Part shown: in pieces, positions 31,122 to 55,503 of the stretch
Layout: every line of letters begins with the position of its first letter
Numbering within the stretch: position 1 is the first letter of the stretch
DNA from: Schmidtea polychroa
Lineage: Eukaryota
NCBI GenBank assembly: GCA_044892525.1
Contig: CM097885.1
Location: 31,436,001 to 31,500,000 of the forward strand
Direction: 5' to 3'
Length of the DNA: 64,000 bases
The notes under the pieces: model-generated
What the model was told of the DNA's origin: nothing
Databases searched by the model: none
What the model saw: only the letters and a program-made list of their open reading frames with translations
Translations under genes and position numbers: made by a program

Positions 31122-31289
31122 TAATTTTATTTGGACCATATAATCAATAATGGTTACCCAAAGGCTCTAATTTATTTTATTTTTAGATAAATTCACTTAT
31201 ACTTTGTTTAAAAATTAATTTGAACAATTCTTCATAATTAACCCCCCCTCAAGCCGTGGATTGGTAGTCTTACAAAAATATAAATTTTT

Positions 31290-31919: not shown

Positions 31920-34696
31920 TCTATAATCTAAAAAAAATCGATAAATTATACTATAGCAACACACAAACTTACCTGTGTGCAAAAATTTAATGTTCCGAAT
32001 GTTAAAAGTTTTATTATAGGAATTGAGAAAGTAACAGAAAAATAATTTTACATACAAACACAGCACACATAATATAAAATACATGTAAATTTAATATAGC
32101 TTTTTTTATTCCGAAAGTAGAAAGTCATTAACATATTGTTAACATATCATTATTTTTAATATATTAAAATTCATGGCAGAAAAAATTTTGGATTTTCAAT
32201 CGGACAACTCTACTTTGAGTTTTCAATAAAAGAACGACAAGACATCGTAAAATCTATTTATAAAATATTTTTGAAGTTATTATTTCTTTAGATTTTTAGA
32301 TAAAACTCGAAAATCGTAAATTTTTATAACTTGTATAAAAAAATGATAATTTCATAGTATTACATAAAATGACAAAATTTACCATATAAATGAGCTGGAG
32401 AAAGAACATTACAAAAACTTAAAAAACTACTCCGCTTTTTTCTTAAGTGTCTTAAAAAAATAAATGTTTTTGGTGATTTCTTTATTTATTCATAGTTAAA
32501 AATATTAATCTAACTTACATTTTATTAAAATAATTCCAAATAAATTCATAGTTATAAAAATTCTATAAAAATCCTGAAAATTAATTAAAAATAATTTATA
32601 ATCAAAATGTTGACTACAAGTAACATTTAAAAGCTTGAATAGTGATCTCATAATTTTATAAAATCAAAATTCCAACCTTAAAAGTTACTGAAATTAAAAA
32701 AACTTACTTGTAAAATTGAATAAATGAAATGAAGTAAATAACTTCACATTCTCATAAATGGTGAGTCATCAACTGATGAACACACCAACGTGTACACCTA
32801 ACCGCGAAATATAACATTATCTATAATCTAAAAAAAAATCAATAAATGTATATTATAGGAACACACCAACTTACCTGTGTGTAGAAATTTAAGGCTGCGA
32901 AATTTAACATTATTATTATAGGAATCTAAAAAGTGAGAGAAAATAATTAAGCATACAAGCACAGCACACATAATGAAAAATACATACAAAATTAAGTAAA
33001 GTGTTTTTCATGCGAAATATACATTGATTAACATATAATTAACATATCAATATTTTCAAATTATTTAAAAAGTTATGTACAAAAAAACTTTTGAATCAGA
33101 TTCTGACTGCTCTACCTTGAGCTTTAGGGAAAAAGAAGTAAATACATCGTAAGATTTAATTATAAAATAATTTAGAATATAAAATTTCTTTAGATTTACA
33201 GATATTGAAGAAGATCCTTCGACATCTTTGAATTTGCAGCAAAAAAATCGCAAATCGTAAATTTTAATAAATTATTTTAACAAATTAATATTTTCATAGA
33301 ATTACAGAAATAGACAAAAAATTCGAAAGAAGATTACAAAAACTTAAAAAATATTTTATCCATTCTTTACTAAATGTCTTTAAAAAATAAATGTTTAGTG
33401 ATTACTTTACTTATTTATAATTATAAAAATATCTAACTTACAATTTTACGAAATAAATCCAAATAAATCCAAATAAATCCAAATAAAATACCATAAAATT
33501 CCTAAAAAAACACCTGAAATTTAATTATCAATGTTATATATTATCAAGATTATAAATGCTGACTAACAGTAATATTTAAGAACTTGAATAATGATCTCAT
33601 AATAATATAAAATCAAAATTCAAGTCCTAAAAATTACTTTAATTCAAAAACTTACCTTTAAACGAATTTTGGAAAATTGAATAAATGAAATTAAGTTAAC
33701 ATTGTCATATAATTGGTGACTCACCAATGGTGGTGTGCACACCAACGTATATTATACACCCGTTTCCACATGTTAAAAGTCTCTATAATGCATGTTGGTG
33801 TGTTCATCAATCGATGACTCACCATTTATGAGAATGTTTATTTCATTTTTTCATTCTCAATTCAATTTTATTTATGTTGAGATCATTATTCAAGCTCTTA
33901 AATATTACTTGTAATCAGCATTTATAATATATTTATAATATATTGATAATTAAATTTCAGGTGCTTTTTTAGGTATTTTATGATATGTTATGAATTTGGA
34001 ATTATTTCAATAAAATGTAAGTTATATATATTTTTAACTAAAAAGAAATAAAATAATCACCAAATACATTTATTTTTTTCAAACATTTAGGAAAAAATCG
34101 GCGTATATGAACGAAATAGTTTTTTAAGTTTTTGTAATCTTCTTTCTCCAGCTCATTTTCAATAGCCTCTTTGACTATATCAAATCGGCTTGGAAAGGAC
34201 ATGGTTTCAATCGATTTTTTGGAGATTCCCAGTAATCTTCCAAAATCTTTATAATTTTCTTTATTTTCATATGCATTGATGAGACGGATTTTATCATTTT
34301 CTGAAATTCTTTGAAAATATTATTTTTTTAAAATAAGTTATTAAAATTTACGATTTTCGAATTTTTTTCTTCAATTATAAAGATGTCGATGGAACTTGTT
34401 GAATATCTTCACACAAAGGCGTTTGACTAGAAATATCTGATATGCTGTAAAATATTTTAATTATTTGTAATTAAATAAAAAAATTCTTACATTGTCAGAT
34501 CTTCACCTTCGCAAAATGGAAATGTCTCCAAAGAAATATCTGAAAATCTAAAGAAATATTAACTTCAAAAATATTTTATAAATAGATCTTACGATGTTTT
34601 GTCGTCCATTTCTCGAAAACTCAAAGTTGAGTTGTCAGATTCAAAATCCAAATTTTTTTCAGCCATGAATTTTAATAATTTTAAATTAATGATATG
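31920..34696. repeat. ~0.9-1 kb unit present three times: two tandem copies and one inverted copy that continues at 50951-51230
   Basis: 32745-32790 is the reverse complement of 33790-33837; 32085-32150 is the reverse complement of 50945-51010. Confidence 0.85.
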
Positions 34697-35896
34697 AGTA
34701 GGTAGAAACTAGCCCACGGGAACAATTACCCCCCCCCCCCGGGGGGGGGGGGGGTTGTTCCCAACTTTTTATTACGCAATTGTTCCCAACTCATTTTTTT
34801 GCTTTCAGGGATTTTTGGTCCAAATTTTTTTTTATCAGACTATAGTGAGAGGGTCTCGATGGTCCTGGGATTTTCAATACAAAAAATTTTTTTCAATACA
34901 AAAACGATGGTCCTGGGATTTTCAATACAAAAAATTTTTTTCAATACAAAAATCCGACTACCACTAAAAAAGCCAAGGATTTTTCAGACTATAGTGAGGT
35001 GGGTCTCCTTGGTCCTGAGAAATAGGTGGTCTACACTAAAAAAAAGCCAAGGAATTTTCAGACTATAGTGAGGTGGTCTCCTTGGTCCTGAGAAATAGGT
35101 GGTCTACACTAAAAAACGTGGTAAATTTTTCAATTGAAGTAAATAATGGTCCTAAAAATTAAATTAAAGTAAATAATGGTTCTAAAAATTGAATTACAGT
35201 AAATTATGGTCTAAAAATTAAATTACAGTAAATGATGGTCAAAATTTTTGAATTACAGTAAATTATGGTCAAAATTTTTGAATTACAGTAAATGATGGTC
35301 AAAATTTTTGAATTACAGTAAATTATGGTCAAAATTTTTGAATTACAGTAAATTATGGTCTAAAAATTAAATTACAGTAAATTATGGTCAAAATTTTGAA
35401 TTACAGTAAATTATGGTCTAAAAATTAAATTACAGTAAATGATGGTCAAAATTTTTGAATTACAATAAATTATGGTCAAAATTTTTCAATTACAGTAAAA
35501 TAAGGTCCAATTTTTCAATTAAAGTAAATAATGGTCCTAAAAATTAAATTAAAGTAAATTATGGTCCTTAAAATTAAATTAAAGTAAATTATGGTCCTAA
35601 AAAATTAAATTAAAGTAAATTAAGGTTCTAAAAAATTAAATTAAAGTTAATTAAGGTCTAAATTTTAAATTAAAGTTAATTAAGGTCTAAATTTAAAATT
35701 AAGTAATCAATGGTAAAAAATTTTAAATAAGTAATAATTTTTAAATAAGTAAATTAAAGTAATGTAATAAGTAAATTAAAGTAATATTTTAAAATTTATT
35801 AACAAAAAGTTGAAGGTGTTTGAGAATTGAAATTTTTTAATGGAAATTTTTATGGAATAATTTTTTTAAGTAATTTTTAATGGAAATTTTTAATGA

Positions 35897-35957
<61 letters not shown>

Positions 35958-36045
35958 GTAATAATATATCAACCAAATACATAAAAATGAACTATACACA
36001 TAAAACACAAACAAATAACAAATGTAAAGATATAAAATTTATTCA
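34697..36045 (+). repeat. Left TIR (~1.35 kb) with C/G hairpin, sub-repeats, ~29-bp tandem array and (AAT)n
   Basis: Reverse complement of the right end up to the pPolB stop region. Confidence 0.92.
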
Positions 36046-36051
36046 ATAAAA

Positions 36052-39000
36052 TTAGTCCTCATCGGACAAAATAACGTCATCGATATCGATGTCATCTTCT
36101 CCAAAATCTTCATTTAATTCTTCCTCATCTTCTCCAAAATCTTCATTTAATTCTTCCTCATCTTCTCCATCATTTTCTCCAACATTTTCTGAAACATTTT
36201 CTGCAACAATTTCTGCAACATTTTCTGCAACATTTTCTCCAATATTTAATTCACTTAATCTTACATGCCCATATGCAAGACTAGCATTTTTCCCCACCCA
36301 AACCCTTTTGTCGTCTTTGTTTGTTAGTGCTATTTTTGTGTTTTTAATTGTAAAAATTTGATGATTTTTGCTTGTTATTTTAGTCTGAGGAACCGAAAAA
36401 ATCTGGTTAGTGTTATAACAATCCAGGTATGACTGATGTTTTATGTCACTACCTTTCAATGTTACACCTTTAGCCTTTTTTGTTTCCTCATCACCCAACA
36501 AGCTATAACATTTAGGTCTAAGAAAAACCCATTCCTTATATTTAAGACCTTTATTCTCGTCTTTGAACTTTCCAATGACTGAATCAAGGTTCTTACTATA
36601 TAAGGAATGACAACTATTGTAATTGGAAGTATCCAATAAATTATCTCGAATCATTGTAGGTAAAAGAACCTCAAGTTTACAGTTAATGACTTCAAGGAAA
36701 AAAGAATCTGTATCACCTGCAACGATATTAATTTTACAATTAAACTCATTGCGAAATGATTCCAGATCCTTATATTGTAATTCATACATTCTAAGTTTAG
36801 ATAGATCAAGTACAGATTGACCAATGTAACTTGGTCTATCTAAACATATAGAATCTGAATTCAATAATGCAGCGATTAAATTATCGTCTATTTTAATAGA
36901 TTTTTTAAAAGTTGGCTTCGAAGAATATTTAACAAGTTTACCGGCAGTTGTACAAAGACGAAGATTCATTCTTCTCTTTAAATTTTCAACTGTTTTGCCG
37001 TATAAACTGTTATTTAGTAATTTATAATAATTTTTATCTAAGTTATTTATGCTTTTTGACCGTAATTCAGTATTTGTATCTATATATTTTTTAAAAATTG
37101 GAGATTGCTTAAATCTTACACCCCTATTTACATGTGTTACTTTAACACCAAGTTCCAAATATAATTTTAATAATCTCCAATGAATAACATAATTAGATTT
37201 TGGAAGATGAGTTAATAATAATTTTTCAACCTTAGACCCAGCAGGTTTCATTTTTTCAGCAGCTACAGGGAAATCATCCAACTTATCATGAAGCTCAGAA
37301 GGAATTACAAGATCAACTTCAAGTGTGTATCCATAAGACAAAGATTCAAGATTTAAATTCCTACATTCATCCATTATTTTATCAAATCCATCAAGAACCC
37401 AACAAAATTCGCCACAAGGTAATGATTGACTTAAAGCCCACCCATAAAGATTATTAATATCTATATATAGTAACTCGGTGTTGTCGTCGGTTTTTACGTA
37501 ATGCTTATTCACAAAAGTAAGACCGCCTCTTATTCCACCCTCATAAAAGCTAAACATTTCGTTTTCAGTTATGAGTTCAATTGGATCATTTAAAGACATT
37601 AATGCAGAAGACCAAGACATGCCAGGAATTCCGAAATAATTCAAAGGCTCTAATCTATTGTGAGCAATTGATTTCAACCTAAACTGATGAAAGAAATCAG
37701 CCAAAAGAAAACAATCAAGTTTTAGGTAGATCATCATATAATCTAATAAAGTTCTGCAATTAGATTCTACCCAAATCTCCTGAGCTTTTTCATACTCAAG
37801 CTCAGTGACACCCTCCCAGATTGGTGGTAATTCATACGTAGTTTGTAGAACATCTAAAGAAGTGGCGAAATTATAAGGGAAGATTCCTTTTTCACATACT
37901 ATGGTGCCAGAAAAAGCAGAATTAGTAAAAGGCAAAGAATTCAAAGTTTTGACTGCTTTAGCCAAAGAATCATTGACAAATTGATATGAATCAATGAATC
38001 TTAGACTAATTTTGCCTAAATGAGCAATCAAAGATATAAATTTTTCCGTAGTTATTGGGATGCACCCTAAATTCCAATTTTTAAATTTATTTAATCCATA
38101 TTTAAGTATATGATGCATATCGTATCCCTTCAAGTTGTGAAATACGATAGGCAAAATTTTATTTATTTTTCTATTTACGTTACATGTGCTACAAGCTGCA
38201 CCCAAGTATTTGCCTGTAAAATGATCGTGATCCCTAACAGGATCCACGATAGATTTCAAACAAAGATAACAAACCGTTGAATTAATGAATTGTTGTTGCT
38301 CATTTTTAGTTAATTTAATCATTGGTTTCCTACCCATTTTATAATAAAAAGGAAGAACCTTATTTAATGCTATATCCTCTATAGCACTTAAAAAACTCTC
38401 GACGCAATCTAAACCTATGAACTGCTGATAAGATTTAGATCCGTCAAAGTTATTTACTAGTAAAAGACCAGCAGATATTGGCATGTGTCGCTGAAAATGA
38501 TCATTATCACAAGGTAAAATAGCCTCAAAATCGGCATAAACTACGAAAGGAGGAGTTACTGTTTTCGACCAGTCAGTAAACTGTAAGAATTTATTTTGAG
38601 GGAAAGTATAAAGAGTAGTTCCTAATTGATTGCGTTTGCATAATATTTCATGTTTTTCTAGTGCGTTTCTATTGTAAAAACCATTCAAACAACGATGACA
38701 CCATATTGATTGTATGCGTGTAGGACAACTAATGTTTATGTGGCAATTCAGTAACCTATTTAAATTGCTTATAGCAATGTAATGGAAATTGTTCCCTTTA
38801 TTTAATAAAAGTAAATTAATTACTGTTCCATTTAAAACTTTGGAACGATGTATAATGTCTAAATGGGGGTGTTTTAAAACGTAATTATCTATTAATTGTT
38901 TGTTATTGTCATAAGAAAAAACGTTAATTATTAAACCAGGATTTTTGGCCTCGAATTTTCTAATATCTTTTAATTTCATTGGTAAGTCTAATGGATTATA

Positions 39001-40206
39001 TATTAACTCAGATCAATTATAACTGGATGTTCTATTTCTATATTGTTTAATAACTTCATCATATTTTAAAATAGCTAAAATGCTATATAAAAAACATGAA
39101 TCGTCGGTGTTTTTTACATTAATTAAGCAGTTTTTATTTTTTAGACAAGTAGGTAGTTCAATGAAACTCCTACCACTTAATCTACTTAACCTACTTATTT
39201 TCGTTATGGTGAAGTGGATTTCAGTTATTTTTTTTATAATCCAACTACTTCCTAACTCTGTGATATTACTTATTTTCTCGTTTAGTTCCCTAATGCCTTC
39301 GTCAAAAAATGTTGAAGTTAAAGGTTTTGCGTAATTCGAAATATTATTAACCTTTATTTCCCCGTCTTTTTCAAATTCGATTGTTATTCCGAATTGAATT
39401 TTGACGGAGCCTAATTCGTTAATAATATCTCGTAATTTTATAATTAATTGTTCTGGAAATATTATTTCCTTTATATTCAAGTTACTTGTATTTAGACTTA
39501 AAATTTGATGTGTACCCCTTAAATCTTTTTGTACTATGGGTACATTACCTCCTATTTGTACATTAGTAGTCGAAGAGTCGAGTGAAAGATTATCAAATTC
39601 ATTATTGGGTTCATCTACATCCCAAGAGTCGAGTGAAAGATTATCAAATTCATTATTGGGTTCATCTACATCCCAAGAGTCGAGTGAAAGATTATCAAAT
39701 TCATTATTGGGTTCATCTACATCCCAAGAATCGAGTGAAAGATTATCAAATTCATTATAGGATTCATCAACTAATCCGACCTGGGATTCAACAAAAGGCA
39801 ATCCATCATTGGATTCAGCAAAAGACAATCCATCATTGGATTCAGCAAAAGTCAATCCATCATTGGATTCAGCAAAAGACAATCCATCATTGGATTCATC
39901 AACTAATCCGACCTGGGATTCAACAAATGTATTTAATTTAATTTTTTTATTAGTAGTATTTATTTCAATAGTTGAAGGACGTTTAAAAATAACATCTTTT
40001 TTAGAATTGAACCTATCTAAATGTTGTTTATGCTTATTATAGAAAACGCTATATGTTAAGGGCTCGCTAATCTTACATATGGGGCATATAAAAAAAGTTT
40101 TATTATAGTATTTTTTAGAATAATAATTCTCCATTATAGAATGGCAATTATTATGTTCTTTCGACGAACAATAATTTGGGTAAAGTATACCTAAAAATAT
40201 ATACAT
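36052..40206 (-). CDS. polB: Protein-primed family B DNA polymerase with N-terminal extension and endonuclease VII-like insertion; one in-frame TGA at 39013-39015
   Basis: YADFE, FHNLKGYD, YIDINNLYG, KLLNNSLYGK, GDTDS, PKCY; CYLC...DHDHFTG...CSTCN; ORFs 39013-40206 and 36052-38979 are in frame, 11 codons apart. Confidence 0.95.
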
Positions 40207-40469
40207 TTAAAAATTTGGCTAAAAACATGTTTTTTGAATAAATATTTAAGTGTTATTTTAAATGTTGTTGAAAAAATTTTAAAGTTAATAAGTATTTAAT
40301 AAGGGTCAGATTATTATTAAAGAGTACTGCATGCTCACTGCAGACTATTATGTAGCTACGTGCTCACTGTAGACTACATTATTATATTAAAGACTACTGC
40401 ATGCTCACTGCAGACTATTATGTAGCTACGTGCTCACTGTAGACTACATTATTATTATCATTATAAAAA

Positions 40470-41030
40470 AAAATTTGCGAGGGATTTCCCCTTATTTCAA
40501 AATAAATATCATTAAAAAAAATATCATTAATAATAATTTCATTATAAAATATTATTTAAAAATGTTAATAATTTCATCATTATATAAAAAATTTTACGAG
40601 GGATTTCCCCTTATTTCAAAATAAATATCATTAAAAAAATATCATTAATAATAATTTCATTATAAAATATTATTTAAAAATGTTAATAATTTCATCATTA
40701 TATAAAAAAAAAATTTTTACGAGGGATTTCCCCTTATTTCAAAATAAATATCATTAATAATTATCATTAATAATAATTTCATTATAAAATATTATTTAAA
40801 AATGTTAATAATTTCATCATTATATAAAAAAAAATTTTTTTTACGAGGGATTTACCCTTATTTTTACTCTTAAGATAAAATTTTATTAAAAATATTAATA
40901 ATCATTTTTAAAAATATTATTAATTTCATTATAAAATATTATTAAAAAATTTTTTACGAGGGATTTCCCACTATTTTTACTCTTAAAATAAAATTTTATT
41001 AAAAATATTAATAATTTCATTATAAAATAT
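40470..41030. repeat. ~120-bp tandem repeat, 5 copies, each with a GAGGGATTT(C/A)CC core
   Basis: Cores at 40481, 40600, 40723, 40847 and 40960. Confidence 0.9.
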
Positions 41031-41057
41031 TATTTAAAAATTGATAAAAATACTTAC

Positions 41058-41322
41058 ATTTGTCATTTTTCATTGTTGCATTTTTCATTGTTTCATTATT
41101 AGCTTTTTTCATTGTTTCATTTTTAACATTTTTCATTGTTGCATTATTAGCTTTTTTCATTGTTTCATTATTAACATTTTTCATTGTTTCATTATTAGCT
41201 TTTTTCATTGTCGCATTTTTAACATTTTTCATTGTTGCATTATTAACATTTTTCATTGTTTCATTTTTAACATTTTTCATTGTTGCATTTTTAACATTTT
41301 TCATTGTTGTATTATTATTCAT
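41058..41322 (-). CDS. Putative first exon of the pPolB polyprotein (8-aa MKNVxNxT repeats)
   Basis: GTAAGT donor at 41057 and TTTTTAG acceptor at 40191 are phase-compatible (T|GT = Cys). Confidence 0.45.
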
Positions 41323-41633
41323 TTTTGATTTTTATCTAAAAATAATTAAATTTTAATAATTAAAAAATAAAATTCTTGCAATCCTTGGTACTAGCAAATT
41401 ATGACCAAATTTTAAAAACAAATCATTTATATACTTCTTCTTCTACTTAATACATTACGTAATAATTAAAGGATTTAATACCTTACATAATAATTAACTT
41501 AATTAAAGATTTAGTTTAATAATCAACTAAAATTTAAATTTTAATAATCAATTATATTGAATTAATAATCAACTAAAAATTTATTGAAATAATCAGCTAA
41601 AATTTATTGAAAACAACTTTTTATTATAAAAAT

Positions 41634-42012
41634 TTATTTCATTGACTTTAACCAAGCCAAACAATGTTGTCCACATGTTTTTGTTATAGGGTTTTGGTAA
41701 CGTATTCGATTGTATTCAATTGGCATTGACATTGATTGTAGTTTATTGATTAATATAGGTGGATAATAGAATCCCATTGGATCAAATGCATATATTTTGT
41801 CTGGTTTCACGTATACTGCAAGCCAATGTTCACCATTCAGATTAGCAGATTGAGTATTTACAATTATTGCTTTGTTGACATCTAAATAAGGTATTTTGTC
41901 TAATGGGAAAACACCTAGAAATTCTTTTCCTAGTAATTTTCTTCCGATAACATGTATCTGAATAGAACTAAATTAATAATAATTAAATAATTTAAATTAA
42001 TTCTTACTTCAT
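41634..42012 (-). CDS. Adenain-type cysteine maturation protease, 112 aa, 40-nt intron 41968-42007 (absent from the ORF track)
   Basis: MN|SIQI...FLGVFPLDKIP...IVNTQSANLNGEHWLAV...FDPMG...YQNPITKTCGQHC; His-Asp-Gln-Cys residues present. Confidence 0.92.
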
Positions 42013-42046
42013 ATTTGATTAATTGATTTTCGATATTTGGTTTATA

Positions 42047-43270
42047 TTATACCAAAACAGTACGAGTAGATGTAATTTGAATTTCTTTTTCAAAAACTCC
42101 ATATACAATTACAGAAACGGCTTCAGTAAGTGAAGATGCGAATTTAATATCTAATCGCAAATTTCCACTTTGTGGTAACTGACTTTGATGAAGATCAAAA
42201 TCTGGTGCCAATACGAATGTAAAGAATGGATACTTGCTCTTAAAATCAGACATGGTGATACCACAATTCATATTTTTATTTAGATAACCCATATTTCTAA
42301 TAATCGATTGCATATAACTTGTACTATAATCATCATTCTCAAAATCTTGACTATATTTTTCGCGATAATCACTTCCTTTACTTAAAGTTATGGACTTGAC
42401 ATTAAAGTGATCAAATAAAGAAAATGATTCTGAAAACGATCCACTAAATCTTTTACTAGATTGAAATGCAACAAGTATAAAATTAGGTAATCGTCTATCT
42501 CCAAATATTTGTTCTTTATAAAAAGAGGAAGAACCAATAGGTAATGAGAAATCAACAACTTCTTTGCTTCTTAAAGGATAAATTGCATTTTTGGTAGACA
42601 GACCAATTTGATGTCCTGCCAAAACCGATGGTTCAACACGAACTCTTCTAACCATTAATTTTGCGTCTAATAATAAAATTTTCGGTTCAATTTTCGCACA
42701 AGTTAAACTAAGTGTTGGATTTGATCTTGTTAATTTAATTTGAACACTAACACCTGGTAGTAAATATTTAGGTTGATCAAAGAAATCAAATTGAAGTGGG
42801 GAACATAAAGAAAAGGATTTTGATTTTTCAATCCATGTTTTTCTCGTAAGATCTTTGTTAGTATACCCCATTCCACCTAAAGATGTTCGTTTAGTATCTC
42901 CGTCATAATTTATAAGTGTTTCAATTAATGCTTTGTGGGCAAATCTATCATTTGATCCTTCAACTTTGATTGAATTAAAAATTAATTCAACATCTTTAAA
43001 AAGGGTTTGGAAGAAGAAATTATTTGGAATTACTTCTGATTCGCCTAAATTCTCACCTAAATTATTAACAACTTTCAATTGAATATATAACAAAGTATCA
43101 TTCAAATCTAAATATTCAGTCTGCGATCCATTTATGTAAAATTGAATCGAAGAAGAACCGGCATCTGTAATTGAATTTCTTGGGTATACATCTTCAAATG
43201 CTCCATGTTCAATCACTGCTTGGGGAGAAGGTCTATCAAAAAGACATAATTCTGATTTAGCACTAATCAT
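42047..43270 (-). CDS. Major capsid protein (double jelly-roll, Polinton PY/hexon-like)
   Basis: KSELCLF...IQFYING...YLDLNDTLLY, QPKYLLPGVSVQIKLTRS, GNLRLDIKF; 407 aa. Confidence 0.92.
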   Translation of the reverse strand: MISAKSELCLFDRPSPQAVIEHGAFEDVYPRNSITDAGSSSIQFYINGSQTEYLDLNDTLLYIQLKVVNNLGENLGESEVIPNNFFFQTLFKDVELIFNSIKVEGSNDRFAHKALIETLINYDGDTKRTSLGGMGYTNKDLTRKTWIEKSKSFSLCSPLQFDFFDQPKYLLPGVSVQIKLTRSNPTLSLTCAKIEPKILLLDAKLMVRRVRVEPSVLAGHQIGLSTKNAIYPLRSKEVVDFSLPIGSSSFYKEQIFGDRRLPNFILVAFQSSKRFSGSFSESFSLFDHFNVKSITLSKGSDYREKYSQDFENDDYSTSYMQSIIRNMGYLNKNMNCGITMSDFKSKYPFFTFVLAPDFDLHQSQLPQSGNLRLDIKFASSLTEAVSVIVYGVFEKEIQITSTRTVLV

Positions 43271-43665
43271 TTTTCAAAGATGGTACCATATACTTTCATT
43301 CTTTTGTTTATATGTTTCTTCATAATTTTTCGGCGTTTAAGTATTCCGCCTTTTTGTTCTTTATCATTTTTAAATACATCGGATACTTTATTAATTACTT
43401 CAGGTAAATGTTGCATCACAGCTGGTAATGATTCTTTAATTTCAGAAATTGCATTTGATTTTAAAGCAGGCAAGATATTTGCATTGTTATTTATTACGTC
43501 ATTAGCTGTTTTCATACCAAAATTTCCTATTCGTCTAAGAATTGGGAGTGCAAATCTACCTATTGTCTTCAACCAACCGGTTCCATATTGTTTACCAACA
43601 AAATATGGTAAATCACCACCCGATTGGTTACTACTATAAAAATGTATTATGTCAGGATTACTCAT
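43267..43665 (-). CDS. Conserved Polinton small virion protein with amphipathic helix (candidate membrane-active/core protein)
   Basis: QSGG...YFVGKQYGTGWLKTIGRFALPILRRIG, basic C-terminus; overlaps both neighbours. Confidence 0.75.
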   Translation of the reverse strand: MSNPDIIHFYSSNQSGGDLPYFVGKQYGTGWLKTIGRFALPILRRIGNFGMKTANDVINNNANILPALKSNAISEIKESLPAVMQHLPEVINKVSDVFKNDKEQKGGILKRRKIMKKHINKRMKVYGTIFEK

Positions 43666-44674
43666 TTATTTTACGAAAATGTAATGTCAAGTATGTTTTA
43701 TCTTCTTTTCCAAATATATATTTTCCACTATCATCTCGTATATTGATTTCTATATTGTTTATATATGAAGACGATACAGGTAAGTACATTGGATTCTTTT
43801 CAATTATTTGTACTAAATCATCTTTTTTATGTTTTTCCACCCAAATACATTTCAAAAGAGGGACCAATGTATCACCAACAATGATAGGTTCGATAATATT
43901 TGTATAGATCATCAATTGTTGATTGCGTTGTAATACTTCAGGTTCTTTAAAACCAATAATAAGTTTGTCAGTATATGCTTCTTCTAATAAACCTAAACTA
44001 TTGGCTAAAAATTTACTAAATTGAACTTTACTGACATCATCATCCATTACAATTTTAACGATTTTTCCTTTTTGAATATCAACAGATTTAAATGGACGAG
44101 GATAAAAGAGTGATAGTTGATCATTTATTTGTGAAAGATCTGTAATGATATTTTCTTCGAATGTATCTGTATACTCGACATCGTAATAATATTGTATAGT
44201 TAATCGAATTGTATCAAACTTTATTTTTCGATTATTTGGAGGAATAGTGATTTGGTTCAAGGCTTTTTTAAAAGTTATTTCTTTTTCTGAAAATCCCAAT
44301 TTCTGCGCTTCTTTAATACTATCGAATTCTACTTTAAAAGGAAAATATTTACAATTAATGTTCAATGTATTTCCATCAATATATATTAAATAAAATGGAG
44401 AGTCGTGACTGATTGTATATTCATTTTTTTCTTGGTTAAAGTAAAAGTATTCATAACTTGTATGTAATACACTTTTACTATATTTGACATTTGAATTGTT
44501 GTAAAAAGGAAAATAATTATACACAAAGGTAAAGTCCATGAGAGCTACTTCCCATTCACCATCCAAGTAAATAGGATTTTGAAATTCGACATTAAATTTA
44601 CCAGCTTCATTATTTGGATGAGTCTGAGGACAACTATTAGAAGGTAAATTCACATAAAAATCTTTTTTAATCAT
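43658..44674 (-). CDS. Minor capsid protein (penton, single jelly-roll), paralog 2
   Basis: FYVNLPSNS...PIYLDGEWEVAL...IYTNIIEPIIVGDTLVPLL...LTLHFRK. Confidence 0.9.
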   Translation of the reverse strand: MIKKDFYVNLPSNSCPQTHPNNEAGKFNVEFQNPIYLDGEWEVALMDFTFVYNYFPFYNNSNVKYSKSVLHTSYEYFYFNQEKNEYTISHDSPFYLIYIDGNTLNINCKYFPFKVEFDSIKEAQKLGFSEKEITFKKALNQITIPPNNRKIKFDTIRLTIQYYYDVEYTDTFEENIITDLSQINDQLSLFYPRPFKSVDIQKGKIVKIVMDDDVSKVQFSKFLANSLGLLEEAYTDKLIIGFKEPEVLQRNQQLMIYTNIIEPIIVGDTLVPLLKCIWVEKHKKDDLVQIIEKNPMYLPVSSSYINNIEINIRDDSGKYIFGKEDKTYLTLHFRKINE

Positions 44675-45692
44675 TTATTTTACGAAAATGTAATGTCAAG
44701 TGTGTTTTTGTATCTCTACTAAATTTTATTAATTTTCCACTATCATCTCGTATATTGATTTCAATGTTGTTTATAGAAGAATTAGAAATTGGTAGATACA
44801 TTGGATTCTTCATTTCTAGTTGCACAATTTCTCCTTGTTCATATTTTTTTATCCAAATAGATTTCAATAACGGAACTCTTACATCTCCAACAGTCAATGG
44901 TTCGATAATATTTGAGTAAATAAACATTTGTTGATGATGATTAAATAATTTTGGAATTTTTGTTCCAATAATTTCTTTCTCTGTAAATGTTTGTTTCTTT
45001 AATCCCAATGTTTTTGTTAAATTTTTATCAAAGGTTATTGATGAAATGTTATCAGCAAGACTTATTTTAACCAATTCATTATTTTGTATTTTTAAATCTT
45101 TAAAGGGAGACGGATTAATTGTCATTAACTGACCATGTATTTCAGATAAAGTATTGATGTATAGTTCATCTTCGAAATAATGTTCAAATTTTGTTTTTTC
45201 AACAACGCTTATAATTATACCAAATTGATCAATTGTTTTATCTTCTGTAAATTTTGGTAATTTAATTCGCAAATGATCACTATCACTAATAACCGATACT
45301 GATTTTAATCCAAATTTAATAGCATGTTCAAAATCTGGAAACGTTATTTTAAATGGAACATGTGGACAAACAACAACCAAATTCTCATATCTTTCAATGA
45401 ACATGTCAACTTCAGGAGTATTTTTAGGATTTATTACTTCAAAGGTTCGATTTGAATTATTTATTCTAAAATATTTAATTTCTTCATCCATCTTTACTTT
45501 TTCATATTGTATCAATGAATTACTGTAATAAGGAAAAGTATTATACACAAAGGTAAAGTCCATGAGAGCTACTTCCCATTCACCATCCAAGTAAATAGGA
45601 TTTTGAAATTCGACATTAAATTTACTAGCTTCATTATCGGGGAAAATAAGGGGACAACTATTAGAAGGTAAAATAATATAAAAATCTTTCAT
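44667..45692 (-). CDS. Minor capsid protein (penton, single jelly-roll), paralog 1
   Basis: FYIILPSNS...PIYLDGEWEVAL...IYSNIIEPLTVGDVRVPLL...LTLHFRK. Confidence 0.9.
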   Translation of the reverse strand: MKDFYIILPSNSCPLIFPDNEASKFNVEFQNPIYLDGEWEVALMDFTFVYNTFPYYSNSLIQYEKVKMDEEIKYFRINNSNRTFEVINPKNTPEVDMFIERYENLVVVCPHVPFKITFPDFEHAIKFGLKSVSVISDSDHLRIKLPKFTEDKTIDQFGIIISVVEKTKFEHYFEDELYINTLSEIHGQLMTINPSPFKDLKIQNNELVKISLADNISSITFDKNLTKTLGLKKQTFTEKEIIGTKIPKLFNHHQQMFIYSNIIEPLTVGDVRVPLLKSIWIKKYEQGEIVQLEMKNPMYLPISNSSINNIEINIRDDSGKLIKFSRDTKTHLTLHFRKIND

Positions 45693-45697
45693 AATAT

Positions 45698-46834
45698 TTA
45701 TTTAATCAATTGATTTTCGGATATCCAAGATGGAGTTTCATATCCATGCCATTTAACATAGTATTGTTTATATTTACCATCTTTTTTGGTTTTTAAAATC
45801 TTTTGAATTCTAAATATTGTAGGAGCAGGAATTACTTGGAGTTCTTGTTCATAGAATTTACCAGTGATTGGTTTGTTTTCATGATCAACTATCACATACA
45901 TGACAGGATTCTGTTTTGTATCGATTTTTAAAATTTGATATACTTCATCACTCCAATTATTATCAAAGTTTTTGATGAATGGTGAAGAATTGATTTTACT
46001 AATTCTTACATGATCACCAACCTTGTATTTCGGTTTATTGATTTTTTCTGACTTTGTTTGATTTTTAGTAAAATCTGCAGGTGTTTGTCCTTTTAATCCT
46101 CTGTGTGGTGAATGATTGTAACTGAAAATAATTTTTGGCAAAACATTTATCCAAGTTTTATTACCTTGATATACAAAATATTTTTTCAAACGTTCTCTTA
46201 AAGTTCGATTAAATCGTTCTACATGAGCAGCTTTGAACTGAGAAAATACTGAGTAGTGGTTTATTCCTTTGATAACCTCTTTAACTTTGCTGTTATAAAA
46301 TTCTTTACCTAAATCATATATTTAAAAATTAATTAATTAAATTTAATTACCTAAATCCGTTTGTAAATTAATAGGTTTACCATCTGCAAACATTTCTTTT
46401 ATCGCATCAGCCATTTCATTTGCAGATTTGGTTTTTGTAGGAACAGCACGAGCATATCTATTAAAAACATCTATACAAGTCAGAATATATTTGTACCCCT
46501 TGTTAATTTTTGAATAAGGTATCATTTCCATCAAATCCATTTGCCATACATCATTGTTTCCAATTGTTTTGTATGGTCTTGTTGGAAAACGTTTCAACAT
46601 TGGTTTATTTAAACTATATGCTAATTGATTAGATAACCATTTCTGAGTTTCTTTCTTTGAATTATTCACTCGTTTTGTTAATTTTTCTACGCCACCAAAA
46701 CCATCTGGATCTTTTGGGTTTGTCCATATTGTTTTTAACTTTTTCTCTATTGTTTTCACTTTTTTCACTTTTGTTTTCACATTTGTTTTCACATTTTTCA
46801 CTTTTGTGTTGGTTTTGTGATACGTTTCCTTCAT
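45698..46834 (-). CDS. int: Retroviral-like integrase with C-terminal chromodomain, 364 aa, 42-nt intron 46309-46350
   Basis: WQMDL, LQTDLG|KEFYN, KAAHVERFNRTL, YKVGDHVRI, YYVKWHGY; splicing joins the two ORFs without stops. Confidence 0.95.
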
Positions 46835-46903
46835 TATTACAACAAGTTGTCAAAATATTAAAATCTACAATATTTTTATTTGGTAATGAACTCTTGATAC
46901 CCA

Positions 46904-47230
46904 TTAAGAACTTAATGATGAGATTGCACTAATTGCAGATAAGACTATAGGAATTAATGCACCCAAGAACCCTCCTTTTTGTTTATATATTATCTTTCTC
47001 ATTAGACGACGATTTTTTGTATCAACTAGAGATAAAAGTGATCTTTTATGTCTTTGCAATGCTAATCTTTTAGCTTTAGTTATATTTACATTACCACGGA
47101 CAACATTTATAATAACTTCAAGTAAATCATCAATAACAAATGATGGAAAAGACTGTAAAATTGATATTCGTTTCGAATTTGGTGCCTTTATTAAAGCATT
47201 AAAATATGGTAAACTCCGTTCAAATTTCAT
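46904..47230 (-). CDS. Conserved Polinton small protein ending in QxGGF plus a hydrophobic tail (108 aa from ATG 47230)
   Basis: EVIINVVRGNV...KQKGGFLGALIPIVLSAI. Confidence 0.8.
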   Translation of the reverse strand: MKFERSLPYFNALIKAPNSKRISILQSFPSFVIDDLLEVIINVVRGNVNITKAKRLALQRHKRSLLSLVDTKNRRLMRKIIYKQKGGFLGALIPIVLSAISAISSLSS

Positions 47231-47259
47231 TATTATTATTAATTTACGCGACGGATTGT

Positions 47260-47412
47260 TTATAATTTGATCCACTTCTTGATTTGTTTCTTAGTTTTTG
47301 TACTTTTTGTACTTTTTGATCCACTTTTTGTTTTCTTTGTACGTTTTGTTTTCTTGGTAATTTTCTTCGAAACACTTGGAAGATTTTTAACAACTACTTT
47401 TTTAAATGACAT
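47260..47412 (-). CDS. 50-aa Lys-rich basic protein (absent from the ORF track)
   Basis: MSFKKVVVKNLPSVSKKITKKTKRTKKTKSGSKSTKSTKTKKQIKKWIKL; fills the gap between the ATPase and the next gene. Confidence 0.65.
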   Translation of the reverse strand: MSFKKVVVKNLPSVSKKITKKTKRTKKTKSGSKSTKSTKTKKQIKKWIKL

Positions 47413-47431
47413 GATTAATTTTATTTAGTTT

Positions 47432-48055
47432 TTAGTTTTGTTTATAAATCGTAACACCGTTTATATTAAAAATATCAGTTCTAATACGCATATCATCTGG
47501 ACATTGTTGTGTAAAATCAAAAAATAAATATCCATGAGGAATTTTTGTCGCATCTTGGAATGAATCAATCAAAAATTTTCTATTATTTGGATAAGCTTGT
47601 CTTGAAAGAAAATCTATTATTGTTTGATCTCTAGGATTTTTGAAAATAATTAAATATTGGACATTTAAATTACGTGTTCTATGACTTCCACCTTGATGAA
47701 AAAGATTTTGTGTAATGAAAATAACTGTAACTCCGCAATGTCTACTGATTTTTGTAAATAAATTATTAAAATCCTTTTCTTTATTTGCTTCCTGGTACAG
47801 ATCATCGATAATAATAACATCACCTTGGCGTAATCTAGATGACCAATTTTTATCAAATCCTTTAATTATGGTCATTTTTAATTTACAGAAACTGTTTTGG
47901 GTCAATCCATGTTCTTCATCTGCACCTCGATGCCAATATATTTTATTAAATTTAGATTTAAACATGTTTGATTGTAATAAATTACATACAAATAAAGTTT
48001 TCCCGCTTCCACTAGGTCCTACAATTTGATATACTGCGTCATTTCTTAATTCCAT
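47432..48055 (-). CDS. FtsK-HerA/A32-like genome packaging ATPase
   Basis: Walker A GPSGSGKT, Walker B VIIIDD, SRH...ITQNLF, FKNPRD. Confidence 0.95.
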   Translation of the reverse strand: MELRNDAVYQIVGPSGSGKTLFVCNLLQSNMFKSKFNKIYWHRGADEEHGLTQNSFCKLKMTIIKGFDKNWSSRLRQGDVIIIDDLYQEANKEKDFNNLFTKISRHCGVTVIFITQNLFHQGGSHRTRNLNVQYLIIFKNPRDQTIIDFLSRQAYPNNRKFLIDSFQDATKIPHGYLFFDFTQQCPDDMRIRTDIFNINGVTIYKQN

Positions 48056-48105
48056 TTTTTAATTAAATTATTTTATTTAATTTGTTTATAATTACAATAA
48101 TTAGA

Positions 48106-48582
48106 ATGATCAGCAACATTAATTATAGAGGAAGATGTGTAGTAAATGGAATGAAGTTCCCATCAGGAAAACCTCAACATGTCATGGACAGAAGTGGAAA
48201 ATATCCAATTTTATTCTTCAAGAGCGGGAAATGTAGGATAATGGGATGTAAGAAACCATTACAGGAAGGCGATCTCAAATATCAAATTCAAGATTTACAA
48301 ATCCAATCAATTACATTAACGTTAGATATGGGTACATGCGTTGATTTAAATGCATTGTCAAGGAAAACCGATAGTTACTACGAGCCTGAAATATTTCCAG
48401 CTTTACGTATTCTCAAGTATAACCCACTATGTGTAAATGTTTTTTCAAGTGGGAAAGTTGTTATATTAGGGATTAAAACATTTGATTATTTTAATCAAAT
48501 TCAAGAAATTCAGAAATTCATTAAATCATTAACTATAAATATCACAACAAATGAAGAAATATTGGAATATTTATTAAGTTAA
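48106..48582 (+). CDS. TATA-binding protein (TBP)-like protein, core only, 158 aa from ATG 48106
   Basis: Two-repeat TBP signature: ISNINY...ILFFKSGKCRIMG and IQSITLTLD...DLNAL...YEPEIFPAL...VFSSGKVVILG. Confidence 0.85.
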   Translation: MISNINYRGRCVVNGMKFPSGKPQHVMDRSGKYPILFFKSGKCRIMGCKKPLQEGDLKYQIQDLQIQSITLTLDMGTCVDLNALSRKTDSYYEPEIFPALRILKYNPLCVNVFSSGKVVILGIKTFDYFNQIQEIQKFIKSLTINITTNEEILEYLLS

Positions 48583-48645
48583 TTAAATTAATTTAATTAA
48601 TTGTGTTTAAATTAACTGAATATCTACAATAACAAAAATTCAAAA

Positions 48646-48993
48646 ATGGATGACGATAAGCAAGCTTACATATTCCAGACTATATTAACAAAGATGGAAG
48701 AATTGTTCCCGAATATAAAGAACAGACTTTCGTATTGTGCTCCGGAACTATTAGCTTATAGAATCAAGCAATTAACGGGGATCAATATAGAAGAACTTAT
48801 ACGAAGACATTTCGAATCTGTCCAAGAATCGAGATTTAAATGCATAGACGATTGTGAAGTATGTATGGATCCGATGAAATTACCATGCCCGTTTAGATGT
48901 AGATGCTGCCAAGAATATAAGATGAAAGAAGTTGATCATATTTTATTAGCAGAATTAAGAAGAGCTTATTACAAGCAAATATTGGATGAATAA
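48646..48993 (+). CDS. Cys-rich putative zinc-binding protein, 115 aa, function unknown
   Basis: AAAATGG start; CIDDCEVC...CPFRCRCC cluster; stop abuts the right TIR. Confidence 0.7.
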   Translation: MDDDKQAYIFQTILTKMEELFPNIKNRLSYCAPELLAYRIKQLTGINIEELIRRHFESVQESRFKCIDDCEVCMDPMKLPCPFRCRCCQEYKMKEVDHILLAELRRAYYKQILDE

Positions 48994-49086
48994 ATTTTAT
49001 ATCTTTACATTTGTTATTTGTTTGTGTTTTATGTGTATAGTTCATTTTTATGTATTTGGTTGATATATTATTACTAATATTATTAC

Positions 49087-49150
<64 letters not shown>

Positions 49151-50944
49151 TCATAAAAATTTCCATTAAAAATTACTTAAAAAAAAAATATTTCATAAAA
49201 ATTTCCATTAAAAATTATTCATAAAAAATTTTCATTAAAAAATTTCAATTCTCAAACACCTTCTATTATTTCAACTTTTTTGATAATAAATTTAAAAATC
49301 TTACTTTAATTTACTTATTTAACTTTAATTTAAAATTTTTACCATTGATTACTTAATTTAAAAATTATTACTTTAATTTACTTATTTTAAATTTTTTACC
49401 ATTGATTACTTAATTTTAAAATTTGGACCATTATTTACTGTAATTTAATTTTTAAGAACCTTAATTTACTTTAATTTAATTTTTAGAACCATAATTTACT
49501 TTAATTTAATTTTTAGAACCTTAATTTACTTTAATTTAAAATTTTGAACCATAATTTACTTTAATTGAAAAATCTTGACCATTATTTACTGTAATTCAAA
49601 AATTTGGACCATTATTAACTGTAATTTAATTTTTAAGAACCATAATTTACTGTAATTTAATTTTTAAGAACCATAATTTACTGTAATTCAATTTTTAGAA
49701 CCATTATTTACTGTAATTCAAAAATTTACCATGCTTTTTTAGTGTAGACCACCTTTTTCTATTGAAATTCTCAGGACCAAGGAGACCCACCTGAATTGAC
49801 CTAGAAAATTCCATGCTTTTTATTGGTAGTCGAATTTTTGTATAGAAAATCTCAGGACCATCGAGACCCACCTCACTATAGTCTGAAAAATTCTATGCTT
49901 TTTTAGTGAGACCGCCTTTTTGTATTGAAAAAAATTTTTTGTATTGAAAATCCCAGGACCATCGTTTTTGTATAGAAAAAATTTTTTTGTATTGAAAATC
50001 CCAGGACCATCGAGACCCCCTCACTATAGTCTGAAAATTCCATGCTTTTTTATTGAAGACCGCCTTTTTCTATTGAAAAAATTTTGTATTGAAAATCCCA
50101 GGACCATCGAGACCCCCTCACTATAGTGTGAAAAATCCTTGGCTTTTTTAGTGGTAGTCGGATTTTTGTATTGAAAATATCCTGAGACCTTAAATTACCA
50201 TGCTTTTTTAGTGGTAGTCGGATTTTGTATTGAAAAAATTTTATTTGTATTGAAAATCCCAGGACCATCGAGACTCCTTCACTATAGTCTGAAAATTCCA
50301 TGCTTTTTTATTGAAGACCAGCTTTTTGTATTGAAAAAATTTTTTTGTATTGAAAATCCCAGGACCATCGAGACCCCCTCACTATAGTCTGAAAATTCCA
50401 TGCTTTTTTAGTGGTAGTTGGATTTTTGTATTGAAAAATTTTTTTTGTATTGAAAATCCCCGGACCATCGAGACCCCCTCACTATAGTGTGAAAATTCCA
50501 TGCTTTTTTAGTGGTAGTCGGATTTTTGTATAGAAAAAATTTTTTTGTATTGAAAATCCCAGGACCATCGAGACCCCCTCACTATAGTCTGAAAATTCCA
50601 TGCTTTTTTAGTGGTAGTCGGATTTTTGTATTGAAAATCCCCGGACCATCGAGACCCCCTCACTATAGTGTGAAAATTCCATGCTTTTTTAGTGGTAGTC
50701 GGATTTTTGTATAGAAAAAATTTTTTTGTATTGAAAATCCCAGGACCATCGAGACCCCCTCACTATAGTCTGATAAAAAAAAATTTGGACCAAAAATCCC
50801 TGAAAGCAAAAAATGTGAGTTGCAACAATTGCGTAATAAAAAGTTGCAACAAAAAAAAGTTGCAACAAAAAAAAAGTTGCAACAACCCCCCCCCCCGGGG
50901 GGGGGGGGGGGGTAATTGTTGCGGTAAGCCACTATCTACCTACT
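48987..50944 (-). repeat. Right TIR (~1.96 kb) with an expanded sub-repeat array
   Basis: About nine GAAAATC(C/T)C(A/C)GGACCATCGAGAC...CACTATAG units at 49850-50770. Confidence 0.92.
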
Positions 50945-51938
50945 GATATGTTAACAGTATGTTAATGACTCTCTACTTTCGGAATAAAAAAAGCTATATT
51001 AAATTTGCGTGTATTTTATATTATGTGTGCTGTGTTTGTATGTAAAATTATTTTTCTGTCACTTTCTCAATTCCTATAATAAAACTTTTAACATTCGGAA
51101 CATTAAATTTTTGCACACAGGTAAGTTTGTGTGTTGCTATAATATAATTTTATCGATTTTTTTTAGATTATAGAAACTTTTATATTGTGGATTTAGGTGT
51201 AGACAATGTTAACTTTCGCGGTTAGGTGTATTATAGAGACTTTTAACATCTGGAATTAGGTGTATAAGTGGAGAAGTACTATTGGTACTACTACTAATCA
51301 TTAAATGAAAGGTGTGAGTAGAGACACTTTGCTGTTGATTGGAGAATGAAATATTTATTCCAATTGGGAAATTATCTAACTGCATATTTTTAGAAATAAT
51401 AAATGTTATTTTCATGAAAAATGTAAGATACAACTTTTTTCGTTATTGTTTAAGTTTGTAAAATGATATGCTCTCGAACGTTCATATTAATAATCTTTTT
51501 GCAAAAAAAGCAATGAACTCATTTATTCTATGAACTTTTCACCTCGAGTAAACTATGTATGCTACTATATCATTGTGGATTAGAACTCCCCGGCGAATAA
51601 GCATAAATTCAATGGATATAGTACAGACTCAAATTCTGAGTAGCTTTCGTTTAGTTGTACCAACCGTTTTTTAACACTCTAGTATTCAAACTTTCTTTTT
51701 AGGTTACAACACAATGTGAATGTAAGCTGCCGTCTAAGGTGAATTAAACATTACATAACTAGACCAAAGAGTTTATGTTGTTTTACAGAAATTGAAGCAT
51801 AAATTATTCATATTCACTTTTTAGAAGAAATTTTATCCAGTCCACCTCAAGGTTTTGAGAATTAGATGGGAAACTTTGTTTTAAAACAATACCAAAATTA
51901 TTAGAAATTTGCAAGAACAACCTATTCATATATATTTC

Positions 51939-54696: not shown

Positions 54697-55503
54697 ATGA
54701 TAAATATTAATGATAAATATAAACACATTCAAACCCTTCAGTCATCAACAAAAAGTGAAGTATATATTGCTGAGAATAATTCCCAGAACAATAAAAGGAA
54801 CAAAACTGTAGTGATTAAAAGAATCCACAAATCTGAAAATAGATTATTTGCACAGAATTCAAATTATCCATTTCGTATTCCATTGGAAATGCATTTTAAT
54901 CAATTAATTAATGATGATGAAATTTGCCCTAAGATTCTTGATTTCTTTCAAGACGACAAAGAATTTTCAATTGTTATGGAACATTTGACTGGTAAATGGG
55001 TTGAACTAGGGGAATACATTATGGAGAAAAAGCGACAAGAAAGATGTGTTAAAAGAATTGCAGAAAATGTAATAATTGCTATTGAAAAATTAATCGATAA
55101 AGGCATTTATCATCTCGATATCAAACCTAGAAATATATTTGTAAATAAAACAACATATCAGGTAAAGATAATTGATTTTGAAGACGCTCTCTTTGATAAT
55201 GTGATGAAGTACCCTAAAACTAACAGTTATGCTGGAACAGTTGGATATTGCAGTCCGGAGGTATTACTTCGTCAAACATTTGATGTAAACAAAAGTGTTG
55301 TATTCATGTTAGGCGCTCTATTTTACAAATGCATGGAAAGAAAACATCCATATCTATTAAAAAACAATTTCTACATTAAGGATATAATATTTTATAGGTC
55401 TTCAGAAACATTACAAAAGTTAGTTAAAAAATGTCTGGATTATAATCCTACAAATAGAATGACCATAAATGAAATACGCAATGACATTTGGTTTCAATCT
55501 TAA
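54697..55503 (+). CDS. Divergent PIM-related Ser/Thr protein kinase, intronless
   Basis: VVIK, IPLE, ILDFFQ...FSIVME, HLDIKPRN, IIDFE, GTVGYCSPE, CLDYNPTNR. Confidence 0.85.
   Translation: MININDKYKHIQTLQSSTKSEVYIAENNSQNNKRNKTVVIKRIHKSENRLFAQNSNYPFRIPLEMHFNQLINDDEICPKILDFFQDDKEFSIVMEHLTGKWVELGEYIMEKKRQERCVKRIAENVIIAIEKLIDKGIYHLDIKPRNIFVNKTTYQVKIIDFEDALFDNVMKYPKTNSYAGTVGYCSPEVLLRQTFDVNKSVVFMLGALFYKCMERKHPYLLKNNFYIKDIIFYRSSETLQKLVKKCLDYNPTNRMTINEIRNDIWFQS

Follow-up and report, generated by a model that had tools for sequence, protein, structure and literature searches.

A TBP-like protein encoded by Polintons of Schmidtea polychroa and a candidate promoter box before their late genes

The locus presented here raises the question of what a Polinton would do with a TBP of its own, and which promoters that protein would read. 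The window, i.e., the whole stretch of 64,000 nucleotides that was analyzed (Schmidtea polychroa, GCA_044892525.1, contig CM097885.1, positions 31,436,001 to 31,500,000 of the forward strand), belongs to an AT-rich eukaryotic genome of 781 Mb. A preliminary description had noted an intact 158-aa ORF with both TBP repeats inside a Polinton bounded by TIRs and a TSD, and had proposed an altered-specificity TBP that either drives the promoters of the element or interferes with host TFIID. The ORF and its setting were confirmed, and the two proposals fared differently, as described below.

Boundaries and gene content of the element

The Polinton spans positions 34697-50944 of the window (16,248 bp). 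Both of its ends begin with AGTAGGTAG (termini AGTAG), and a 6-bp TSD, GATATG, is found on either side at 34691-34696 and 50945-50950. The TIRs are long and imperfect (~34697-36045 and ~48987-50944), with ~83% identity over their longest alignable stretches. Close to either terminus a C-run directly adjoins a G-run (34727-34760 and 50880-50915), a perfect GC hairpin ~30 nt inside the TIR. With a pPolB (disrupted in the window copy), an rve integrase, a packaging ATPase, a cysteine protease and a double-jelly-roll major capsid protein, the element is a Polinton/Maverick of the adintovirus type; this gene set, along with pX, TIRs and a 6-bp TSD, is shared with the Polintons, Mavericks and adintoviruses covered in the available text of PMC8502044 and PMC8097293. 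The capsid assignment comes from a low-confidence predicted model (pLDDT 56.5), for which the listed Foldseek matches are all double-jelly-roll capsid or scaffold proteins (best E-value = 9e-10, with a TM of only ~0.28); a sequence-profile search with it against the PDB returned nothing. The pPolB of the window copy is split by an in-frame stop at 39013-39015 (- strand), which is probably present in one near-identical copy elsewhere as well (same 397-aa frame); the locus is open for at least 1300 aa in 40 of the 50 best-scoring copies of the same family, as counted by eye. The features of the window are listed below.

34697..50944, no strand assigned: Polinton/Maverick (adintovirus-type), AGTAG termini, TSD GATATG
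48646..48993, + strand: Cys-rich 115-aa accessory ORF (ORF115), downstream of the TBP gene
48106..48582, + strand: mini-TBP gene, 158 aa, two-lobed fold without the N-lobe helices H1/H2 (model and alignment)
48084..48090, - strand: TATAAAC box in the gap between the two divergent genes, 35 nt upstream of the ATPase ATG
47432..48055, - strand: packaging ATPase, Pox_A32-like (Pfam)
47459-47465, - strand: TATAAAC box in the ATPase 3' end
47440-47446, - strand: TATAAAC box in the ATPase 3' end, 34 nt before the small basic ORF
47260..47412, - strand: small basic 50-aa ORF, possibly core-protein-like by its composition (no Pfam match)
47258..47264, - strand: TATAAAC box, 34 nt before the pX gene
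46904..47230, - strand: pX/mu-like core protein (Pfam Adeno_PX, E-value = 2e-6)
46981..46987, - strand: TATAAAC box within pX; an 80-aa ORF follows after 83 nt and the integrase ATG after 153 nt
45698..46834, - strand: rve integrase (Pfam), with a 42-nt GT..AG intron-like stretch within
45766..45772, - strand: TATAAAC box, 80 nt upstream of putative minor capsid gene 1
44667..45692, - strand: putative minor capsid protein 1 (mCP1; position and homology to other Polinton loci)
44769..44775, - strand: TATAAAC box inside the mCP1 coding sequence, 101 nt before mCP2
43658..44674, - strand: putative minor capsid protein 2 (mCP2), tandem paralogue (position and homology)
43757..43763, - strand: TATAAAC box inside the mCP2 coding sequence, 98 nt before ORF132
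43267..43665, - strand: conserved 132-aa ORF (ORF132) of the capsid block
43306..43312, - strand: TATAAAC box, 42 nt upstream of the ATG of the major capsid gene
42047..43270, - strand: major capsid protein, double jelly-roll (predicted model and Foldseek)
42040..42046, - strand: TATAAAC box, 34 nt upstream of the probable ATG (42012) of the protease
41634..42012, - strand: adenain-type protease (Pfam Peptidase_C5, E-value = 1e-5)
36052..40206, - strand: protein-primed DNA polymerase B (pPolB; Pfam), broken by a stop

The mini-TBP gene is established head-to-head with the packaging ATPase gene across a 50-bp gap. The integrase contains an in-frame 42-nt GT..AG insert at 46309-46350 (- strand); sister families carry an AT-rich insertion at the same codon, and the metagenomic locus L034 does not. 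Judging by its sequence, this stretch is probably an intron, which would be unusual for Mavericks, those of vertebrates being described as intronless. Another short GT..AG intron-like stretch comes right after the probable protease start codon (41957-42012, - strand). The contigs of four runs over the region, whose RNA nature is a guess, list no splice joint, and a T-run at 47295 in one of them may reflect internal priming. Two tandem minor-capsid-like paralogues are present here (43658-45692, - strand) as against a single one in each of six sister-family elements, and their duplication carried the embedded TATAAAC box along. ORF115 matches no known family, and its relatives (23-33% identity) are confined to certain sister families, in which they lie close to the TBP gene; it was rejected as an obligatory TBP partner, as no family was found for it and it was not detected in loci L112 or L114. 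Positions 40200-41400 hold AT-rich tandem repeats with TATATAA and a 100-aa low-complexity ORF of NATMK/NETMK units. Outside the Polinton, the window has an intronless 268-aa protein kinase ORF (54697-55503, + strand) and a second pair of long inverted arms (11547-12380 and 30274-31130, ~18-19 kb apart) with no Polinton gene matches between them.

Fold, descent and DNA face of the mini-TBP

The TBP ORF (48106-48582) has no internal stop, and Pfam matches its TBP family to residues 64-130 only (E-value = 7e-16). An AlphaFold model built on a 99-sequence alignment reached a mean pLDDT of 95, and VIA-align superposes residues 1-147 on residues 66-240 of yeast TBP (Z = 12.7, rmsd 2.5, 145 aligned), from which it follows that both TBP lobes are present. 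The model is a two-lobed saddle with a continuous antiparallel β-sheet, as in the TBP fold superfamily. All 44 of the listed Foldseek PDB matches at E ≤ 0.001 are TBP entries, and structural matches in BFVD are of the NCLDV/poxvirus TBP-like type (best E-value = 2e-8). The preliminary description had overlooked that lobe N lacks its helices: residues 1-80 of the model contain strands but are free of helices, since H1 and H2 have been deleted, as the alignment shows. Canonical TBP has two helices per lobe, including the basic H2 of lobe N, and a far clade of the family is of normal length. The idea that an exon farther upstream had been missed and would complete lobe N was rejected, since the relatives start at the same place (N4 in 101/103). 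No fused longer forms of the mini-TBP were found, which is weak evidence.

The gene, first regarded as a peculiarity of one 16-kb element, proved to be old and lineage-wide. The host genome alone carries at least 150 copies of it at 98-100% identity (149 of 150 scored have no stop), and all six sister-family elements fetched keep it head-to-head with the ATPase, at ~57% identity for TBP and 60-64% for pPolB. Its dN/dS is 0.10-0.25 in 17 of 21 pairs and 0.39 in one near-identical pair, with three pairs saturated, indicating purifying selection; that of the ATPase is 0.03-0.08. These ratios leave aside counts among the 20 best own copies, which had been picked by protein identity. Public data yielded 123 relatives among 140 candidates, mostly of 144-160 aa, and 63 cluster representatives at E ≤ 1e-30; more than 100 relatives are metagenomic. 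By score and motifs, 25 of the 81 loci examined belong to the mini-TBP family (ten of these were placed by the tree); 12 of the 25 carry Polinton core genes, the contigs of the remaining 13 measure 1.0-3.4 kb, and Polinton core genes occur in none of the 56 non-family loci. A 76-row tree separates the family (45 rows) from the cellular type (31 rows, among them the host TBP and its paralogues) at a support of 100/99; the 29 rows without the helices group together (100/100), and normal length is seen in the far rows. The tree is unrooted with long branches and names no donor. Family-wide spread, selection and a tree branch of its own support the view that the TBP gene is an old resident of this Polinton lineage rather than a recent capture from the host.

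Viral contigs scanned with ATPase, capsid and polymerase alignments gave no relatives, and a TBP scan of them gave one match only, in an unrelated context. In the host genome, a distant capsid query led exclusively to TBP-carrying families (6/6 fetched) and to no TBP-less Polinton, a distant TBP query revealed another sister family, and a Pox_A32 search pointed to 13 weak places; a phage search gave no match. The host itself shows an unusual expansion of TBP/TRF paralogues, with at least six loci (L136-L141) that are 34-78% identical to plant-type TBP, some of them nearly intronless. A near-complete distant Polinton was also observed (L039:138-18014), with a TBP of the full-length type, KilA-N, PLA2-like and chromodomain-integrase genes, and CATAAAC/TATAAAC boxes.

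The residue table covers 120 near and 16 far relatives together with 20 cellular TBPs, in yeast numbering anchored by structural superposition. F97 and F113 of the mini-TBP correspond to yeast F190 and F207, and F38 corresponds to F116, so that three of the four intercalating Phe are kept, both in the second repeat and the FxSGK one in the first, as had been read from the ORF. The fourth, F99, is replaced by P23 according to a sequence alignment that adjoins a deletion at this point, and Pro stands there in 107/108 near and 14/16 far relatives. The second conserved Asn, N159, is S68 in the alignment, again as described. The two-lobed saddle, N69, F116, F190, P191, F207, K211, the SGK turns and the stirrup glutamates E186 and E188 are thus held in common with cellular TBP/TRF (PF00352). 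The mini-TBP is nevertheless not a canonical TBP: its core is ~145 aa, the near clade has lost H1 and H2 by deletion, F99 has become Pro, the DNA face is polar and the family sits on a separate branch.

The DNA-binding positions of TBP given in Table 1 of PMC12529657 are N69, V71, F99, L114, F116, V122, T124, N159, V161, F190, P191, L205, F207, V213 and T215. Changes fixed in both near and far groups are F99P, V122R (110/113 near, 16/16 far), T124M (120/120 and 16/16), N159S (as S/T), V161T (as T/S) and L205N (118/119 and 16/16); V71N, I194R and V203C are fixed in the near group only. The same table gives polar residues for KSHV ORF24 at V122, T124, V161 and L205. The engineered altered-specificity variant TBPm3 was changed at I194, V203 and L205, as stated in the available text of PMC1636458, and all three positions are fixed otherwise in the near clade (R/C/N). 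From the same text, the N-lobe of TBP contacts the 3' half of the box, where C is generally disfavoured by TBPm3. Of the preliminary claim of an altered-specificity TBP, the altered DNA-facing residues therefore stand and extend to a fixed polar DNA face; a changed specificity is what these residues would suggest.

The best conserved surface of the family is the TFIIB stirrup, with Glu at E93 in 113/119 relatives and at E95 in 118/119, so the C-lobe glutamates are kept by sequence. In the available text of PMC7221094, the two stirrup glutamates bind TFIIB, and a basic patch largely on N-lobe helix H2 binds TFIIA, TAF1, Brf1/2 and Mot1; the first stirrup Glu is kept in only ~40% of viral TBPs, and most such viruses carry a TFIIB of their own. 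Among 67 ORFs (15 + 52) searched here no Pfam match to TFIIB was obtained, most loci being partial, from which a remote homologue could escape.

The TATAAAC box of the late genes

The sense strand of the 6.5-kb block from ATPase to protease, here called the late block, has TATAAAC as its most over-represented 7-mer (10 against 1.6 expected). It is absent from the antisense strand of this block, from the sense strand of the polymerase side and from the region before the TBP gene, and in the flanks it is at background (13 vs 11.6 expected). Four boxes are located 34-35 nt before an ATG and one 42 nt, and four further ones 80-101 nt before the next ATG, within the preceding gene; the ATPase box is present in 20/20 fetched copies. 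Across loci, ATAAAC, mostly as TATAAAC, occurs within 120 nt upstream of 26/28 ATPase, capsid and pX genes (ATPase 10/10, MCP 5/5, pX 6/7, mCP 5/6) vs 2/24 TBP genes, on a background of 1-9% per 120 nt, these locus counts being partly non-independent (L030/L032, L038/L039 and the sister families are related). A count of 24/24 from a 24-row subset is biased, because the omitted L036 mCP and L112 pX were misses, and 26/28 is preferred. Two minor capsid sites read GATAAAC, and the far clade keeps the box, often as CATAAAC.

Where the box lies in the minor capsid gene, it is written in codons as nnT-ATA-AAC in 14/14 rows with a variable first residue, the pattern being matched at 13 of 16 loci and the rows amounting to only ~4-5 independent lineages. 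The next Asn after the box is AAT in 13/13, and AAC makes up 31 of the 176 Asn codons of five window genes. The YATAAAC box is hence held at synonymous codon positions, is under selection and is restricted to late genes.

Canonical TATAWAWR elements show the opposite placement. They occur upstream of 9/22 TBP genes, each with one at -34 to -49, vs 2/24 late genes, in a comparison of 24 of the 28 late-gene rows that leaves aside the mCP of L034, L112 and L036 and the pX of L112. The TBP gene of the window and 12 other TBP loci have no canonical TATA upstream. Accessory genes of the sister families bear CCAAT and a canonical TATA, and the integrase, no obvious late gene, sits in the boxed block.

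A possible late-gene switch and its alternatives

Our preferred reading, drawn from sequence patterns, is that the mini-TBP is probably a virus-specific late-gene TBP which reads the TATAAAC box together with host TFIIB and Pol II. The protein would be expressed early, probably from a host-type promoter, and would bind the minor groove of YATAAAC boxes ~30 nt upstream of the late transcription starts, where the three Phe that it retains would kink the DNA. Through the C-lobe stirrup glutamates it would recruit host TFIIB and Pol II, and the rebuilt N-lobe, which in cellular TBP sits on the 3' half of the box, would read the AAC end, which is disfavoured by host TBP. The loss of H2 in this subfamily would remove the surface for TAF1, TFIIA, Brf1 and Mot1, so that the factor, we propose, works outside TFIID control. 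Virion, packaging and integration genes would thereby be switched on, and the element would have two promoter classes: accessory and TBP genes would be served by a host-type one, virion and packaging genes by YATAAAC. The early suggestion that the element serves its own promoters has thus gained a candidate target, and the alternative of interference with host TFIID is weakened, because the helix contacted by TAF1, TFIIA, Mot1 and Brf1 is deleted. Certain data sit badly with the late-gene reading: two of the 24 TBP genes have ATAAAC upstream, the TBP gene of the window has no canonical TATA, and the integrase is located within the boxed block.

Three further points against it are at the same time those in favor of a reading that takes TATAAAC for a common TATA box of rather low strength, recognized by host TBP or TRF, with the mini-TBP acting elsewhere, on host genes or other sites of the element. 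TATAAA also forms the core of a standard TATA box; sites of this kind can be bound by host TBP, since the adenovirus major late TATA box in its C(-25) variant was crystallized with wild-type TBP (PDB 1qn3); and the several divergent host paralogues, at least six TBP/TRF-like loci, could read the box. We regard this reading as unlikely, given that C occupies position 7 in 26/28 YATAAA sites and that TATAAAA occurs 0 times on the sense strand of the late block vs 6 on the antisense. Binding of TBP to the C(-25) variant reportedly needed a Hoogsteen pair. The CATAAAC variants of the far clade, the canonical TATA of accessory genes in the same elements and the persistence of the box in metagenomic elements with polymerases only ~34% identical (L039), which probably come from other hosts, speak against a host-read box as well.

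The conserved TFIIB stirrup could also belong to a decoy or dominant-negative factor, which titrates host TFIIB or blocks host TATA promoters and so damps host transcription, and the loss of H2 would blind such a protein to Mot1 and TAF1 control. To our mind this is improbable: a DNA face that is conserved, specific to the family and equipped with three Phe would not be needed in a pure sponge, the host would bear the cost of hundreds of resident copies, and the selected box before the late genes is left unexplained. Little probability is likewise given to the mini-TBP binding its boxes as a repressor, in latency of integrated copies, or as an architectural or packaging factor instead of an activator. 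The lack of an activation domain and of a TFIIA-stabilising surface would suit such a role, as would the one box that overlaps the region just upstream of the TBP start codon on the opposite strand, where feedback is possible; against it, five boxes are gene-oriented at core-promoter-like distances from the ATG (four at 34-35 nt, one at 42 nt) and the TFIIB glutamates are kept. Finally, that the ORF is a functionless, decaying fragment of a recently captured host TBP, with boxes that are chance occurrences or poly(A) signals, of which TATAAA is a variant, is almost certainly wrong: several boxes do lie near 3' ends of upstream genes, but others are ~95 nt before the stop codon of the containing gene, the ATPase box has no gene upstream on its strand and so cannot be such a signal, dN/dS is well below 1, the family branches apart from host and other cellular TBPs, and box counts and codon conservation contradict it too.

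The closest known parallel to a late-gene TBP of this kind is KSHV ORF24, in the available text of PMC12529657 a virus-encoded TBP fold that acts with host Pol II on a variant late TATA box (TATTWAA for the TBP mimics of beta- and gamma-herpesviruses), with polar changes at the same V122, T124, V161 and L205. A variant TATA element specific to late genes is found in the Polintons as well. ORF24 differs in being 752 aa long, in keeping four Phe, in binding Pol II directly and in needing five more viral factors; according to a section heading of that paper, direct TFIIB binding is incompatible with it, and the mini-TBP keeps the stirrup. The mini-TBP is a bare 158 aa of TBP fold, with no extra Pol II-binding domain or multi-subunit viral activator complex and no obligatory viral partner found, and its likeness to ORF24 is at the level of the shared fold. 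By analogy it would work like a herpesvirus late-gene TBP mimic, and it is not a member of that family. TBP-like factors of NCLDV and poxviruses share the viral TBP fold and, in the available text of PMC7221094, an N-lobe regulator signature that is not conserved; they mostly come with their own TFIIB and have lost the stirrup glutamates. In the element no TFIIB or RNA polymerase is seen. The NCLDV/poxvirus factors mostly pair with an RNA polymerase of their own. Viral TBPs had been said to be known mainly from NCLDV, which proved too narrow, as the literature available to us also places TBP-like proteins in beta/gamma-herpesviruses and poxviruses.

The preliminary description had left it open whether the gene was already described. 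In the openly available full-text literature on Polintons with TBP, TATA box or promoter motif, we found no paper describing the family or the box. A "TBP" label does appear in a legend to maps of MELD viruses with adintovirus-like PolB (Starrett et al., PMC8502044; preprint 10.1101/697771), and the annotated nucleotide maps of that work may already label the mini-TBP family; the part of its supplement that was searched had no TBP match. TBP is not among the eight genes that make up the vertebrate Maverick core in the available text of PMC8097293, Polintons are not mentioned in that of PMC7221094, neither TBP nor TATA in that of PMC11131425 and one supplement, and PMC12220804, PMC10005294 and PMC6431247, to the same extent, hold nothing on a Polinton TBP. 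What appears to be new is the description of the family, its helix loss and the putative late-promoter box, the presence of TBP having been hinted at in one figure legend.

It has long been an open question whether Polintons lead a viral life cycle, and how they do so. A late box and a TBP encoded by the element offer a directly testable mechanism, with one small protein and one 7-bp site. More tentatively, at a strength slightly short of probable, we put forward a widespread Polinton lineage with a minimal one-protein late switch, in which a natural altered-specificity TBP of ~145 aa, convergent with herpesvirus TBP mimics at some DNA-contact positions, would read YATAAAC with host TFIIB and Pol II, its control helix for TFIID, TFIIA, Brf1 and Mot1 having been deleted. 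It would provide a natural and compact protein for studying TATA recognition and TFIID-independent initiation, and late genes of such elements could be annotated with the box as a sequence marker. If true, these elements would be transcriptionally autonomous viruses with an early-late programme, which would set the lineage apart from virophage-like elements that depend on a helper virus.
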